Translations under genes and position numbers: made by a program
From: Escherichia phage AnnaIndermaur_Bas104
Sequence record: PQ850595.1
Strand: one strand, 5' to 3'
Length of the DNA stretch: 40,334 nt
The notes under the pieces: generated by a model
What the model was told of the DNA's origin: nothing
Seen by the model: only the letters and a program-made list of their open reading frames with translations
The model's database searches: none
Part shown: piece after piece, positions 2,889 through 40,320 of the stretch
Layout: every line of letters starts with the position of its first letter
Numbering within the stretch: the first letter of the stretch is position 1

Positions 2889-3042
2889 GGAGGGACGAAA
2901 GGTTACTATATAGATACTGAATGAATACTTATAGAGTGCATAAAGTATGCATAGTAGTGTACCTAAAGTGACCTCTAAGAATGGTGATTATATTATATTA
3001 ATATCACCTTAACTTAAAGACCAACATAAAGGGAGGAGACTA

Positions 3043-3192
3043 ATGTTCCGCTTATTGTTGAACCTATTGCGGCATAGAGTCACCTACCGCTTTCTTATGG
3101 TACTTTGTGCTGCCATTGGGTACGCATCGCTTACTGGAGACCTCAGTTCACTGGAGTCTACCGTTTGCTCTTTACTCACTTGTAGCGATTAG
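3043..3192 (+). CDS. 19.5: gp19.5 homolog, 49 aa small hydrophobic protein
   Basis: MFRLLLNLLRHRVTYRFLMVLCAAIGYASLTGDLSSLES... matches T7 gp19.5; GGGAGGAG RBS; below the 60-aa ORF-track cutoff. Confidence 0.8.
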   Translation: MFRLLLNLLRHRVTYRFLMVLCAAIGYASLTGDLSSLESTVCSLLTCSD

Positions 3193-3432
3193 GGTCTTCC
3201 TGACCGACTGATGGCTCACCGAGGGATTCAGCGGTATGATTGCATCACACCACTTCATCCCTATAGAGTCAAGTCCTAAGGTATACCCATAAAGAGCCTC
3301 TAATGGTCTATCCGTAAGGTCTATACCTAAAGATAGGCCATCCTATCAGTGTCACCTAAAGAGGGCCTTAGAGAGGGCCTAAGGAGTCCCTAGAGGGTCC
3401 TTTAAAATATACCATAAAAATCTGAGTGACTA

Positions 3433-9644: not shown

Positions 9645-9776
9645 ATGCGTAACTTCGAAAAGATGACCAAACGTTCTAACCGTAACGCTCATGACAGCTT
9701 CGAGGCAACTAAAGGTCGTAAGTTTAATAAACCATTACGCACCCGTGCTCATAAACGCTGCTGGGAGGGCCAGTAA
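9645..9776 (+). CDS. 1.1: gp1.1 homolog, 43 aa basic protein
   Basis: MRNFEKMTKRSNRNAHDSFEATKGRKFNKPLRTRAHKRCWEGQ; matches T7 gp1.1 N-terminus. Confidence 0.8.
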   Translation: MRNFEKMTKRSNRNAHDSFEATKGRKFNKPLRTRAHKRCWEGQ

Positions 9777-9777
9777 G

Positions 9778-10050
9778 ATGGGACGTCTGTATAGTGGTAA
9801 TCTGGCAGCATACAAAGACGCTATTGAGCGCATCAAGGAGGACTACGATGTCAACGTAGTCATTGAGACTTTCCGATATATGAGCTATGCGCGGATGCGT
9901 TGGGTAGCTGGAGAGACTATTCGAGTGGTATTGCGGAATGGCGTAGAGGTAACATCCAAGAGGTTCGAGCACGATGATGAAGATGTGCGCTGTAATGCAC
10001 AGACCGAATGGTTACGCAAGGTGCATAGTGATTTGAAGCACTGGAAGTAA
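9778..10050 (+). CDS. 1.2: gp1.2 homolog (dGTPase inhibitor in T7), 90 aa, central region diverged
   Basis: MGRLYSGNLAA... and C-terminal ...DLKHWK match T7 gp1.2; ORF-track start at 9691 is an in-frame upstream extension through gene 1.1. Confidence 0.8.
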   Translation: MGRLYSGNLAAYKDAIERIKEDYDVNVVIETFRYMSYARMRWVAGETIRVVLRNGVEVTSKRFEHDDEDVRCNAQTEWLRKVHSDLKHWK

Positions 10051-10070
10051 TACGACTCAGTATAGGGATA
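10048..10070 (+). promoter_or_regulatory. T7 RNAP promoter phi1.3
   Basis: TAATACGACTCAGTATAGGGATA (same C-to-G variant as T7 phi1.3). Confidence 0.85.
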
Positions 10071-10075
10071 ACCCA

Positions 10076-10489
10076 ATGACCGACATAGAACGATTCAACA
10101 GTAAGACCGAACCATGTGGTGACTGTTTGCGTTGGACTGGTAGTATCCAGCCCAATGGTTACGGACGGTTCCGCCTGTATGGTAAGCCTGTATATGCCCA
10201 TAGGGCTTCGTACATTCTGTTCAACGGTGAGTTGAATAAGAGTGATGTAGTCCTACACTCCTGTGACAATAGGTGGTGTGTAAATCCTGCACATCTAACC
10301 AAGGGCACACAGGCAGATAACCTTAGAGACATGGCTATCAAAGGACGTGGTGCTAGAAAGATAACTAATGAGCAGGTCGATATGATACGGACGGACCCTC
10401 GCTCCGGCAGGGAGCTAGCAAGGGCACTTAATGTCGCTGCTTCAACAATACACTACATACGAAATGGCAAACTGAGGAAATACATATGA
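10076..10489 (+). CDS. free-standing HNH homing endonuclease, 137 aa
   Basis: HNH motif region YAHRASY...LHSCDNRWCVNPAHL; inserted between phi1.3 and the ligase gene where T7 has only the R1.3 leader; ATGA overlap with ligase start. Confidence 0.8.
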   Translation: MTDIERFNSKTEPCGDCLRWTGSIQPNGYGRFRLYGKPVYAHRASYILFNGELNKSDVVLHSCDNRWCVNPAHLTKGTQADNLRDMAIKGRGARKITNEQVDMIRTDPRSGRELARALNVAASTIHYIRNGKLRKYI

Positions 10490-11520
10490 TTATTAACTTT
10501 AAGACTTCACCATACAAGGCAGTATCTTTCGTAGAGTCTGCCATTAAGAAAGCTCTGGATAACGCTGGGTATCTTATTGCAGACATTAAGTACGATGGTG
10601 TGCGTGGTAACATCTGCGTAGACAATACTGCTAACTGCTGCTGGCTCTCTCGTGTGTCTAAAACGATTCCGGCGCTGGAGCACTTAAACGGGTTTGATGT
10701 TCGCTGGAAGCGTCTGCTGAGCGATGACCGTTGTTTCTACAAAGATGGCTTTATGCTCGATGGTGAACTCATGGTCAAGGGCGTAGACTTTAACACAGGG
10801 TCTGGCCTACTGCGCACCAAGTGGCTCAACAAGAATAACTTTGAGTTCGACGTTGGCGGTGTACCTCCGCTCAAGGGGTCCAAGGTTGAGTTCGCGTTGG
10901 ACACCAAACGTCTGAGTGTCAAACTGTACGCTATCCTCCCTCTGCACATCGTGGAGTCTGGTGAAGACTATGATGTCATGACGTTGCTCATGCAGGAACA
11001 CGTTAAGAACATGCTGCCTCTGCTACAGGAATACTTCCCTGAAATCGAATGGCAAGCGGCTGAATCTTACGAGGTCTACGATATGGTAGAACTACAGCAA
11101 CTGTATGAGAAGAAGCGTGAAGAAGGCCATGAGGGTCTCATTGTGAAAGACCCGATGTGCATCTACAAGCGAGGCAAGAAGTCAGGCTGGTGGAAAATGA
11201 AGCCAGAGAATGAGGCTGATGGTATCATTCAGGGTCTGATATGGGGGACCGAAGGTCTTGCTAATGAGGGCAAAGTGATTGGCTTTGAGGTGCTTCTTGA
11301 GAGTGGTCGTGTAGTTAACGCCACAAACATCTCTCGCGCCTTAATGGATGAGTTTACAGCGGCATGTGATACTGACACATACCACCTTGCCGGTATAAAC
11401 CCGTACCAAGGCTGGGCCTGCCAGATTAGCTACATGGAGGAAACACCTGACGGCTCCCTGCGTCACCCATCGTTCGTATGTTTCCGTGGCACCGAGGATA
11501 ACCCTCAAGAGAAAATGTAA
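10486..11520 (+). CDS. 1.3: ATP-dependent DNA ligase (T7 gp1.3 homolog), 344 aa
   Basis: adenylation motif KYDGVRG; near-identical to T7 ligase but ~15 aa shorter. Confidence 0.93.
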   Translation: MIINFKTSPYKAVSFVESAIKKALDNAGYLIADIKYDGVRGNICVDNTANCCWLSRVSKTIPALEHLNGFDVRWKRLLSDDRCFYKDGFMLDGELMVKGVDFNTGSGLLRTKWLNKNNFEFDVGGVPPLKGSKVEFALDTKRLSVKLYAILPLHIVESGEDYDVMTLLMQEHVKNMLPLLQEYFPEIEWQAAESYEVYDMVELQQLYEKKREEGHEGLIVKDPMCIYKRGKKSGWWKMKPENEADGIIQGLIWGTEGLANEGKVIGFEVLLESGRVVNATNISRALMDEFTAACDTDTYHLAGINPYQGWACQISYMEETPDGSLRHPSFVCFRGTEDNPQEKM

Positions 11521-17967: not shown

Positions 17968-19926
17968 ATGATCGTTTCTGACATCGAAGCTAACGCCCTC
18001 TTAGAGAGCGTCACTAAGTTCCACTGCGGGGTTATCTACGACTACTCCACCGCTGAGTACGTAAGCTACCGTCCGAGTGACTTCGGTGCGTATCTGGATG
18101 CGCTGGAAGCCGAGGTTGCACGAGGCGGTCTTATTGTGTTCCACAACGGTCACAAGTATGACGTGCCTGCATTGACCAAACTGGCAAAGTTGCAATTGAA
18201 CCGAGAGTTCCACCTTCCTCGTGAGAACTGTATTGACACCCTTGTGCTGTCACGCTTGATTCACTCTAACCTGAAAGACACCGATATGGGTCTCCTGCGT
18301 TCCGGTAAGTTGCCGGGGAACCGCTTTGGGTCTCACGCTTTGGAGGCGTGGGGTTATCGCTTAGGCGAAATGAAGGGTGAATACAAGGACGACTTTAAGC
18401 GTATGCTTGAAGAGCAAGGTGAAGAATACATTGATGGAATGGAGTGGTGGAACTTCAACGAAGAGATGATGGCCTATAACGTTCAGGACGTTGTGGTCAC
18501 TAAAACTCTCCTTGAGAAGCTACTCTCTGACAAACATTACTTCCCTCCTGAGATTGACTTTACGGACGTAGGATACACTACGTTCTGGTCAGAATCCCTT
18601 GAGGCCGTTGACATTGAGCATCGTGCTGCATGGCTACTCGCTAAGCAAGAGCGCAATGGGTTCCCGTTTGACACGAAAGCAATCGAAGAATTGTACGTAG
18701 AGTTAGCTGCTCGCCGCTCTGAGTTGCTCCGTAAATTGACCGAAACGTTCGGCTCGTGGTATCAGCCTAAAGGTGGCACCGAAATGTTCTGCCATCCGAG
18801 GACTGGTAAGCCATTGCCTAAATACCCTCGCATTAAGATACCTAAAGTTGGTGGTATCTTTAAGAAGCCTAAGAACAAGGCACAGCGAGAAGGCCGTGAG
18901 CCTTGCGAACTGGACACCCGCGAGTACGTTGCTGGTGCTCCTTATACGCCAGTTGAGCACGTAGTGTTTAACCCATCGTCTCGTGACCACATTCAGAAGA
19001 AACTCCAAGAGGCTGGGTGGGTCCCCACGAAGTACACCGATAATGGTGCGCCTGTGGTGGACGATGAGGTACTCGAAGGAGTACGTGTAGATGACCCTGA
19101 GAAGCAAGCTGCCATCGACCTCATTAAAGAGTACCTGATGATTCAGAAGCGAATCGGACAGTCTGCTGAGGGAGACAAGGCGTGGCTTCGTTACGTTGCT
19201 GAGGACGGTAAGATTCATGGTTCTGTTAATCCCAACGGCGCTGTTACTGGGCGCGCTACTCACGCTTTCCCTAACCTCGCACAAGTACCCGGTGTCCGTT
19301 CTCCTTATGGTGATAAGTGCCGCGCTGCTTTTGGCGCTGAACATCACCTAGACGGTATTACTGGTAAGCCTTGGGTTCAGGCTGGCATCGACGCATCCGG
19401 TCTGGAGCTACGCTGCTTGGCCCACTTCATGGCTCGCTTTGATAACGGTGAGTACGCTAGAGAGATTCTTCATGGCGACATCCACACTAAAAACCAGCTA
19501 GCTGCTGAATTACCTACCCGTGATAACGCAAAGACGTTCATCTATGGGTTCCTCTATGGTGCTGGCGATGAGAAGATTGGGCAGATTGTTGGTGCTGGTA
19601 AAGAGCGCGGTAAGGAACTCAAGAAGAAATTCCTTGAGAACACCCCCGCGATTGCAGCACTCCGCGAGTCTATCCAACAGACGCTTGTCGAGTCCTCTCA
19701 GTGGGTAGCTGGTGAGCAACAAGTCAAGTGGAAACGCCGCTGGATTAAAGGTCTGGATGGTCGTAAGGTACACGTTCGTAGTCCTCACGCTGCCTTGAAT
19801 ACACTACTGCAATCTGCTGGTGCTCTTATCTGCAAACTGTGGATTATCAAGACCGAAGAGATGCTAGTAGAGAAAGGCTTGAAGCATGGCTGGGATGGGG
19901 ACTTTGCGTACATGGCATGGGTGCAT
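17968..19926 (+). CDS. 5: DNA polymerase (T7 gp5 homolog), exon 1 (codons 1-653)
   Basis: near-identical to T7 gp5 up to ...FAYMAWVH; reading frame then diverges (KLSHCAH-stop) and T7 homology resumes at 20528. Confidence 0.9.
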
Positions 19927-20527
19927 AAACTATCTCATTGTGCACATTAAATCTGGTGAACTCGGTGAAACCCTTCTGGGGCAATACCGAGCCAAGCCAT
20001 AGGGAGGATATATGAGAGGCAAGAAGTTAATCCTTGCGGCCACAGAGAGTGGTTGTATCATCCCTACGTCGCACAAACTTAATGCTGATGGTTATTTCCG
20101 AAAGAAGACGAACGGTGTCCTAGAGATGTATCACAGGACAGTCTGGAAGGAACACTACGGAGATATACCAGAAGGGTATGAAGTAGACCACAAGTGTAGG
20201 AACAGGGCGTGCTGTAACGTAGAGCACCTCCGGTTACTAGAAGGTTCTGAGCATACAGTCAAGACAAACATGGAACGCTACGCTGACCGTAAAGAGTCCG
20301 CGAAGGAATACTGGTTGGAGACTGGATGTACAGGAACACACTTAGGTGAGAAGTTTGGTGTAACGTTCTCTGCCGCTTGTAAGTGGATTAGAGAGTGGAA
20401 GGCGTAGAGACTATCCGAAAGGAGTAGGGCCGAGGGTGAGATTCCCTCGTTACCCGAAGCGCCAGACAGTCAACTCAAAGGCTGATGATATAGTCCGACA
20501 CTCCTAGTAATAGGAGAATACAGAAAG
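19927..20527 (+). mobile_element. group I self-splicing intron (601 nt) in DNA polymerase gene, with HNH homing-endonuclease ORF
   Basis: exon 1 ends in U; exon 3' GUGCAU can pair with intron GUGCAC (19940-19945) to form P1 with U-G at the splice site; intron ends in G; exon1+exon2 = 704 codons, exactly T7 gp5 length. Confidence 0.8.
20012..20407 (+). CDS. intron-encoded HNH homing endonuclease, 131 aa
   Basis: HNH motif EVDHKCRNRACCNVEHL; GGGAGG RBS; lies wholly inside the intron. Confidence 0.85.
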   Translation: MRGKKLILAATESGCIIPTSHKLNADGYFRKKTNGVLEMYHRTVWKEHYGDIPEGYEVDHKCRNRACCNVEHLRLLEGSEHTVKTNMERYADRKESAKEYWLETGCTGTHLGEKFGVTFSAACKWIREWKA

Positions 20528-20683
20528 GATGAGATTCAAGTAGGTTGCCGTACCGAAGAGATTGCTCAGGTGGTCATTGAGACCGCACAAGAAGCAATGC
20601 GCTGGGTTGGAGACCACTGGAACTTCCGGTGTCTTCTGGATACCGAAGGTAAGATTGGTCCGAATTGGGCAGTATGTCACTAA
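20528..20683 (+). CDS. 5: DNA polymerase (gp5), exon 2 (51 codons)
   Basis: DEIQVGCRTEEIAQVVIETAQEAMRWVGDHWNFRCLLDTEGKIGPNWAVCH matches the T7 gp5 C-terminus. Confidence 0.85.
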   Translation, partial: DEIQVGCRTEEIAQVVIETAQEAMRWVGDHWNFRCLLDTEGKIGPNWAVCH

Positions 20684-20702
20684 TTCTATAGGAGAAATTA
20701 TT

Positions 20703-39936: not shown

Positions 39937-40320
39937 ATGCGTAAATTTACTAACTGGACATACGAAGTAACTACCGCTTACGGCGGTATCGCCACTTATG
40001 ACGTGACGGCCTCTTGTGGGACCGATTGGTATGAACTCATGGTTGAACTTGAGGACCGACCTGAGAGATGGGTAGTCGGTATTGATAAGAACGGATTCAT
40101 CTCATGGTTCTCCGATGGAACTGTTAACGGCACTTATGCGCCACCTGAGGGCGGTCTGGTGATTGTCACCGATGAGTTCGACCCTGAGTGGCAACGTGTT
40201 AAACTTTGGAACGGGGAGTCCTTCGAGGATATCCCTAATCCACCTAAACGTACACCTGAGGAAATCCAAGCAGACCTTGAGGCTCTGATGGTTGAACTTC
40301 GTGGGCTTAGGGGGGGATAA
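39937..40320 (+). CDS. hypothetical protein, 127 aa; candidate tail-fiber assembly chaperone (weak Tfa-like resemblance)
   Basis: intact ORF with AAGGAG RBS 6 nt upstream, inserted between gene 17 and 17.5; acidic, no TM; PEGGLVIVTDE...LWNGESF loosely resembles the lambda Tfa / P2 gpG N-terminal region as I recall it. Confidence 0.45.
   Translation: MRKFTNWTYEVTTAYGGIATYDVTASCGTDWYELMVELEDRPERWVVGIDKNGFISWFSDGTVNGTYAPPEGGLVIVTDEFDPEWQRVKLWNGESFEDIPNPPKRTPEEIQADLEALMVELRGLRGG

Follow-up and report, generated by a model that had tools for sequence, protein, structure and literature searches.

What is a 137-aa open reading frame (ORF) doing between the φ1.3 promoter and the DNA ligase gene of a T7-like phage, at a place where T7 itself has no gene, and how did it come to be there? 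The window, by which we mean the whole 40,334-bp stretch of DNA analysed here, represents the entire genome, in circularly permuted form, of a T7-like phage of the Teseptimavirus type, most similar among database genomes to Escherichia phage EmilieLinder_Bas103 (98.0% identity over 96% of the first 25 kb) and then to JeanTinguely (97.4%). The sequence-only reading had described a 137-aa ORF with an HNH motif in the φ1.3 leader, whose stop codon overlaps the ligase start as ATGA. The ORF call at 10076–10489, the motif LHSCDNRWCVNPAHL at residues 60–74 and the promoter at 10048–10070 bore out the first statement, and the TGA at 10487–10489 and the ligase ATG at 10486–10488 the second. The locus contains the following elements.

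10048..10070, plus strand: φ1.3-type T7 RNA polymerase promoter, TAATACGACTCAGTATAGGGATA, with 2 mismatches to the 23-nt T7 consensus (0 expected by chance) and 1 difference from T7 φ1.3.
10076..10489, plus strand: free-standing HNH (His-Me finger) gene of the homing-endonuclease type, 137 aa, ATG start; from the ORF, Pfam HNH_3, PHROG, identity to T7 gp7.7 and gp2.8, dN/dS and an AlphaFold (AF2) model.
10474..10478, plus strand: GAGGA, Shine-Dalgarno element for the ligase within the last HNH codons, from the sequence.
10486..11520, plus strand: gene 1.3, ATP-dependent DNA ligase, 344 aa, start overlapping the HNH stop; the ORF aligns with the annotated ligases of T7, Bas103, ESh1 and others.

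The ORF at 10076–10489 was judged real, and the chance-ORF reading was excluded, because it matched Pfam HNH_3 (PF13392; 33.2 bits, gathering cut-off 24.8, E 3.9e-8, residues 39–84 with all 46 model positions covered) and the PHROG HNH families (top match PHROG 59, E 1.9e-31), had 68 database homologues, and showed dN/dS ratios of 0.15–0.24 among its closest relatives (0.24 against ESh1, 0.21 against WW2, and 0.15 between ESh1 and WW2). By this codon comparison the ORF is under purifying selection. Its G+C content (0.471 versus 0.484) gave no sign of recent foreign origin. The exact 137-aa sequence was not on record in the databases and contig index searched, and the best protein cluster was 98% identical to the window allele. 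Taken together, these results make it almost certain that the window carries an intact HNH nuclease gene at this position.

The protein was mapped onto the DNA as follows.

10076..10195, plus strand: N-terminal beta-hairpin region, residues 1–40, with a CxxC pair, from the model secondary structure and invariant columns.
10124–10126, plus strand: Cys17, invariant, predicted fourth zinc ligand, from the invariant column and codon coordinates.
10196..10339, plus strand: His-Me finger catalytic core, residues 41–88, with Cys63, Cys68 and His73 as predicted zinc ligands.
10256–10258, plus strand: His61, predicted general base.
10319–10321, plus strand: Asn82, predicted metal ligand.
10361..10468, plus strand: C-terminal three-helix helix-turn-helix, residues 96–131, predicted DNA-binding module.

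The AF2 model of the 137-aa protein was confident throughout (pLDDT 91.7) and displayed the beta-beta-alpha fold of the HNH_3/His-Me finger nucleases; as modelled, its nuclease core, of the beta-beta-alpha-metal type, is preceded by an N-terminal beta region and followed by a helix-turn-helix at the C terminus. Alignment with 62 database homologues revealed ten invariant residues (C17, Y29, G30, H42, H61, C63, C68, P71, H73 and N82), all of which are present in the full-length window ORF. The active-site His and Asn were thus intact on proper alignment, with His61 and Asn82 invariant among the 63 homologues aligned. The I-PpoI-type zinc-loop family zf-His_Me_endon (PF05551) scored 23.8 bits, below its cut-off of 27, so that the protein resembles this family at the sequence level and is not filed as a member of it; a search of NCBIfam assigned the protein to no family.

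The best fold matches of the model were the homing endonucleases I-HmuI (PDB 1U3E, Bacillus phage SPO1) and I-PpoI (PDB 1A73, Physarum, His-Cys box/His-Me finger). In profile searches of PDB sequences, H61 and N82 aligned with His75 and Asn96 of I-HmuI, and H61, C63, C68, H73 and N82 stood in exact register with H98, C100, C105, H110 and N119 of I-PpoI, although the sequence matches to solved structures were weak (E 0.01–0.07). We take the aligned residues of both enzymes to have the catalytic, metal-binding and zinc-binding roles given in the structural literature. I-HmuI, which nicks one strand, is intron-encoded and has no Cys3His zinc motif, in contrast to the free-standing window gene, which has one; the similarity is marginal (E 0.01), and Asp74 of I-HmuI is replaced by Leu60 in the window protein, as in I-PpoI-type sites. 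The match to I-PpoI covers only the core motif: that enzyme, encoded in a eukaryotic nuclear intron, is a dimer that makes double-strand cuts and has a second zinc site and no helix-turn-helix. On these alignments, the HNH protein is a combination of the modular build of I-HmuI (nuclease plus helix-turn-helix) with the Cys3His zinc motif of I-PpoI.

HNH proteins encoded beside terminase genes are known as packaging cofactors, according to work cited in PMC8861465, which raises the question of whether the ORF product assists the DNA-packaging terminase, as its counterparts do in HK97-like phages. The HNH gene, however, lies in the class II replication region with genes 1.2 and 1.3, far in the gene order from terminase genes 18 and 19 (gene 19 is at 1149–2786 of the permuted genome), and thus lacks adjacency to terminase or portal genes; close relatives, including T7, do without it, and its HNH_3 plus helix-turn-helix architecture is that of homing endonucleases. 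Either such a packaging role or a chance ORF, the latter excluded above by homology and selection, is very improbable.

Free-standing HNH genes related to the one at this locus are found in T7 itself. By BLASTP, the window protein was 40.6% identical to T7 gp7.7 over 128 residues (E 3e-26) and 40% identical to gp2.8 over 120 residues (E 1.5e-22); by this measure the two are its closest T7 paralogues. Both are collinear with the window protein over its full length and share with it the C-x(n)-HxCxNxxCxNxxHL-x(7)-N core and the C-terminal helix-turn-helix, but their recognition helices differ from that of the window protein, so their targets presumably differ as well. A BLASTP search with the 137-aa protein gave no direct match to gp3.8 at E values up to 10 and none to gp5.3. 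Comparison with the T7 proteins proposed by the sequence-only reading was therefore productive for gp7.7, and additionally for gp2.8, and yielded no direct match for the other two.

That reading had also placed genes 3.8, 5.3 and 7.7 in the T7 HNH family and reported them missing from their usual positions. Their absence was confirmed: homologues of gp3.8, gp5.3 and gp7.7 at the T7 positions were not found in the window, and tblastn with gp2.8, gp3.8, gp5.3 and gp7.7 of T7 matched only two places in it, ORF 10076–10489 and ORF 20012–20407. The family assignment required correction, since gp5.3 is a PD-(D/E)XK endonuclease candidate (Pfam PDDEXK_5, E 1.1e-10), whereas gp2.8, gp3.8 and gp7.7 are HNH_3 proteins by Pfam, gp3.8 being related to the other two. 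The T7 HNH list is thus 2.8, 3.8 and 7.7, with 5.3 removed, and the same three are treated as the homing endonucleases of T7 in a preprint (10.1101/2025.09.07.674715). T7 gp5.3 (NC_001604, 16483–16839; 6284–6640 in locus L009) carries the annotation "hypothetical protein", and the window contains no homologue of it. The sites of gp7.7 (between genes 7.3 and 8) and gp2.8 (between 2.5 and 3) differ from that of the window gene and are both empty in the window, where genes 2.5 and 3 directly abut (14111/14112) and genes 7.3 and 8 are separated by 14 nt; between genes 3.5 and 4 there are 157 nt.

The second tblastn match lies in a split gene with the following parts.

17968–20686: DNA polymerase gene 5, split after ...AWVH; exon 1 is 17968–19927, and exon 2 runs from 20529 (DEIQVGCR...) and ends ...PNWAVCH.
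About 19928–20528: group I intron splitting gene 5, length about 601 nt; Rfam RF00028 at 36.8 bits (local E 1.2e-7), short of the gathering score.
20012–20407: intron-borne HNH_3 ORF, 131 aa.

It was the embedded ORF that kept the RF00028 score under the gathering level; at gathering thresholds Rfam returned nothing in the whole window, and the intron was visible only in the search by local E-value. The same intron was found in Bas103, phage 13a and others of the 39 matching records at 96–99% identity, and these records are often annotated with a split polymerase and an HNH endonuclease. The expectation that the endonuclease genes of this genome sit at sites other than those of T7 was thus upheld, but the neighbourhood of gene 5 is not free of them, as an HNH ORF lies within the intron that splits this gene. 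The T3 gene 5.3 endonuclease, in the work of Bonocora and Shub (2004, 2009), reportedly spreads as a free-standing gene into the empty sites of relatives. T3 gene 5.3 and I-TslI resemble the window gene in being HNH endonuclease genes from T7-like phages, but their target is DNA polymerase gene 5, and their relative in the window is the intron ORF 20012–20407, which shares only 31% identity over 51 residues with the product of ORF 10076–10489. Bonocora and Shub 2004 and I-TslI (phage PhiI/W31) are both cited in PMC3428280, and the gene 5 intron corresponds to the T7-like polymerase introns of Bonocora and Shub cited there.

How the gene is joined to its neighbours was addressed by aligning the junctions of non-carriers (T7, Bas103 and AV103) and carriers (ESh1, WW2, 64795_ec1, Yanou and PDP351P2). 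In T7 (NC_001604), the interval from φ1.3 (6409) to the ligase (6475) contains no ORF and folds as a strong hairpin (−23 kcal/mol, z −3.25), in line with the earlier statement that the T7 leader holds only the R1.3 RNase III site. This hairpin is the R1.3 site of the T7 literature. The window promoter has its predicted +1 at 10065, leaving a leader of 11 nt before the HNH ATG, and in the carriers the gene starts a few bases past promoter position +6. No structured RNA replacing R1.3 was detected in the window leader (z 0.02 and −0.19), and no R1.3-like leader sequence matched anywhere in the window at ≤3 mismatches. Judged by these junctions, the HNH gene has taken the place of the R1.3-hairpin segment of the leader and is not a pure insertion, and the term "inserted" used by the sequence-only reading should be amended to that extent. 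At the downstream end, GAGGA at 10474–10478 stands where non-carrier genomes have the native AGGAGA ribosome-binding site of the ligase; the HNH ORF reads through this position and supplies GAGGA instead, by which the ligase is set up for translational coupling.

Two further observations concern the leader and the ligase start. With R1.3 lost, an ATGA overlap and an internal GAGGA, processing of the ligase mRNA and initiation of its translation must differ from those of T7 in all carriers. In clade B carriers (described below), the promoter +1 region reads AGGAGG and doubles as the Shine-Dalgarno element of the endonuclease gene.

The distribution of the gene was patchy. It is absent from close relatives, namely Bas103 (98% identical), JeanTinguely, AV103 and T7, and present at the same junction in WW2, ESh1, L060 and others; among T7-like ligase loci in IMG/VR, 7 of 49 carried an HNH gene. 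About 23 GenBank phages have a same-site gene at ≥58% aa identity, and some 20 of the records are annotated as HNH endonuclease, so the gene is not unique to this genome, as had been implied. The nearest are those of Yersinia phage vB_YenP_WW2 (UYE95489, 90.5% aa identity) and Shigella phages ESh1 and ESh3 (89%), followed at 58–67% by 64795_ec1 gp06 (Escherichia), Yanou ORF12 (Cedecea), Patroon (Klebsiella) and E-2 (Enterobacter). They share with the window the order φ1.3, HNH gene and overlapping ligase start, the length of 137–138 aa and the domains, and carry the annotation "HNH endonuclease" or "endonuclease"; the window allele differs from every record, and the carriers vary in their gene 1.2 backbone. 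The same-site genes fall into three related clades, A, B and C, 61–74% identical to one another, and a fourth, Klebsiella-phage clade is at about 40% as distant as T7 gp7.7. From this distribution, the φ1.3–ligase site is a recurrent landing place for HNH genes. The window gene adds a new allele to a lineage already known and annotated, an ordinary finding that would not surprise a specialist; as one more allele at a recurrently invaded hot spot of T7-like phages, it carries little weight for basic biology.

Comparison of the window with Bas103 and with the other carriers delimited two features around the gene.

9710..10524, plus strand: recombinant patch comprising the gene 1.2 body, φ1.3, the HNH gene and the first 13 ligase codons in a Bas103-like backbone, from SNP mapping and binned identity.
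10486..10524, plus strand: HNH-linked ligase 5′ tract of foreign origin, MIINFKTSPYKAV versus MMNIKTNPFKAV of non-carrier Teseptimaviruses, from SNPs and the carrier alignment.

By SNP mapping, the window hardly differs from Bas103 as far as 9681 and then between 10525 and about 11166, with dense differences at 9710–10524; within this patch, identity to Bas103 was 76–92% or the sequence was absent, compared with about 100% outside it. The best match within the patch was L060, a metagenomic phage contig (Logan ERR9710127, 39,696 bp) that carries the same gene in the same place (95% aa identity), at 92–100% per 100-nt bin. Against ESh1 and WW2, the HNH gene was 88–94% identical and gene 1.2 just upstream only 43–66%, a discordance that points to separate histories for these two genes. 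Another mosaic patch at 11166–11506, within the 3′ portion of the ligase gene, was 78–84% identical to Bas103 and 96–99% to L060. No endonuclease or other mobile gene is attached to it, which indicates that ordinary recombination also shuffles this region and could have delivered the HNH cassette. The patch pattern around the HNH gene fits horizontal acquisition with co-converted flanks. Patchy site occupancy and flank co-conversion are the expected signatures of intronless homing (review PMC3984707). The assignment to the free-standing, homing-endonuclease type of HNH gene was sustained by the domain, the fold, the conserved catalytic residues, the presence and absence of the gene in near-identical genomes, and the recombinant patch.

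The ligase flank deserves separate consideration. Differences from Bas103 in the 5′ part of the ligase gene all fell at 10488–10524, the next being at 10581, and the tract 10486–10524 is identical in the other clade A carriers ESh1, WW2 and L060. The 17 non-carrier Teseptimavirus genomes read MMNIKT(N/S)PFKA(V/T), and all clade A carriers read MIINFKTSPYKAV. Similar xFKT..PYKAV variants of the ligase 5′ part were also observed, among the 49 IMG/VR loci, in other genera that lack the HNH gene, and the 5′ variant is better read, on this comparison, as a hitch-hiking donor flank than as proof of a recoded target. We had considered the dense synonymous changes in ligase codons 2–13 as a recoding of the target for self-immunity and dropped this candidate in view of those non-carrier genera. 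Likewise, a linkage of the divergent ligase codons 13–35 to the HNH gene in clade B was abandoned when the same allele was found in the non-carrier L020.

Active homing by the gene at 10076–10489 appears likely on the genomic evidence, and the following cycle is proposed. The HNH gene would be transcribed with the class II genes from φ1.3 and upstream promoters, and its translation would probably be modest, because the sole Shine-Dalgarno-like element upstream of its ATG is GGGA at +1 to +4, the very 5′ end of the φ1.3 transcript. Upon co-infection with a non-carrier, a monomer would bind, by its N-terminal strands and helix-turn-helix, an extended asymmetric site at the junction of leader and ligase start or close to it; we infer that the target lies within the R1.3 leader or the non-carrier ligase 5′ sequence. 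His61 would activate a water molecule, with one Mg2+ held by Asn82, and a nick or cut would follow, nicking being suggested by analogy with I-HmuI and by the many phage HNH_3 enzymes that nick. The T7 recombination machinery would then use the carrier genome as template to mend the break, so that the gene is copied across together with short flanks (intronless homing). The carrier itself would be immune, the non-carrier leader and ligase 5′ sequence being gone from its genome; the latter had no match at ≤3 mismatches anywhere in the window. Translation of the ligase would be coupled to the HNH ORF via the ATGA overlap and the internal GAGGA. Our search of the literature on the locus, its carriers and the biochemistry of T7 gp7.7 and gp2.8 found no cleavage assay or characterisation of this lineage.

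A homing endonuclease gene that has become locally fixed could also persist as an inactive, decaying relic. The homing cycle predicts degeneration after fixation (PMC3984707), and the ribosome-binding site before the HNH ORF is weak. In the closest carrier, L060, the HNH gene (3001–3414) has the substitutions D64A and D81G beside the zinc-loop and metal-binding residues next to the active site, at positions that are both conserved in the window; these may be an early sign of decay in the L060 lineage. The window ORF, however, is of full length with its ten invariant residues intact, its dN/dS ratios of 0.15–0.24 and confident AF2 model argue against decay, and non-carrier alleles are common among close relatives, so that targets are still available. 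We consider decay in the window quite improbable.

Purifying selection also extends to the helix-turn-helix domain, which is compatible with a protein kept mainly for the benefit of the phage, either masking DNA ends from a break-sensing defence of the GAPS4 type independently of nuclease activity or cutting competing co-infecting phages. A catalytically dead T7 gp3.8 and another HNH endonuclease blunt GAPS4 defence, and T7 without 2.8, 3.8 and 7.7 is outcompeted by the wild type only under active GAPS4 (preprint 10.1101/2025.09.07.674715); gp7.7 and gp2.8 are homologous to the window protein along its entire length. The effect on GAPS4, however, is direct for gp3.8 and bas24_0090, and 2.8 and 7.7 contribute only within the triple deletion. 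The window sequence itself is silent on defence systems, a purely DNA-binding role would not need the strictly conserved catalytic residues, and occupancy of 7 of 49 loci is typical of selfish elements. We regard a mainly phage-serving role as rather unlikely, although it is compatible with homing. Equally tentative, and probably not correct as a whole, is the proposal that the cassette is more than a passenger: deletion of R1.3, the supplied ligase ribosome-binding site and the ATGA coupling would have rewired ligase expression and made loss of the gene costly (addiction), and the protein may in addition mask DNA ends from break-sensing defences, like T7 gp3.8 with GAPS4.

The window and Bas103 constitute a natural, near-isogenic pair of which only one has the gene, suitable for measurements of homing, marker exclusion and possible anti-defence effects of a T7-family HNH endonuclease. 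When T7-like therapeutic phages are engineered or mixed, spread of the HNH locus is to be expected in co-infections.

Elsewhere in the window, tail-fibre gene 17 and holin gene 17.5 flank a 127-aa ORF at 39937–40320, whose position suggests a link to the tail fibre; the ORF gave no Pfam or PHROG match. It is 97–98% identical in a few T7-like phages (JB01, C5 and 04922B) and 46–53% identical in others, and an ORF of a 171-kb phage genome (ST2) is about 46% identical to it.
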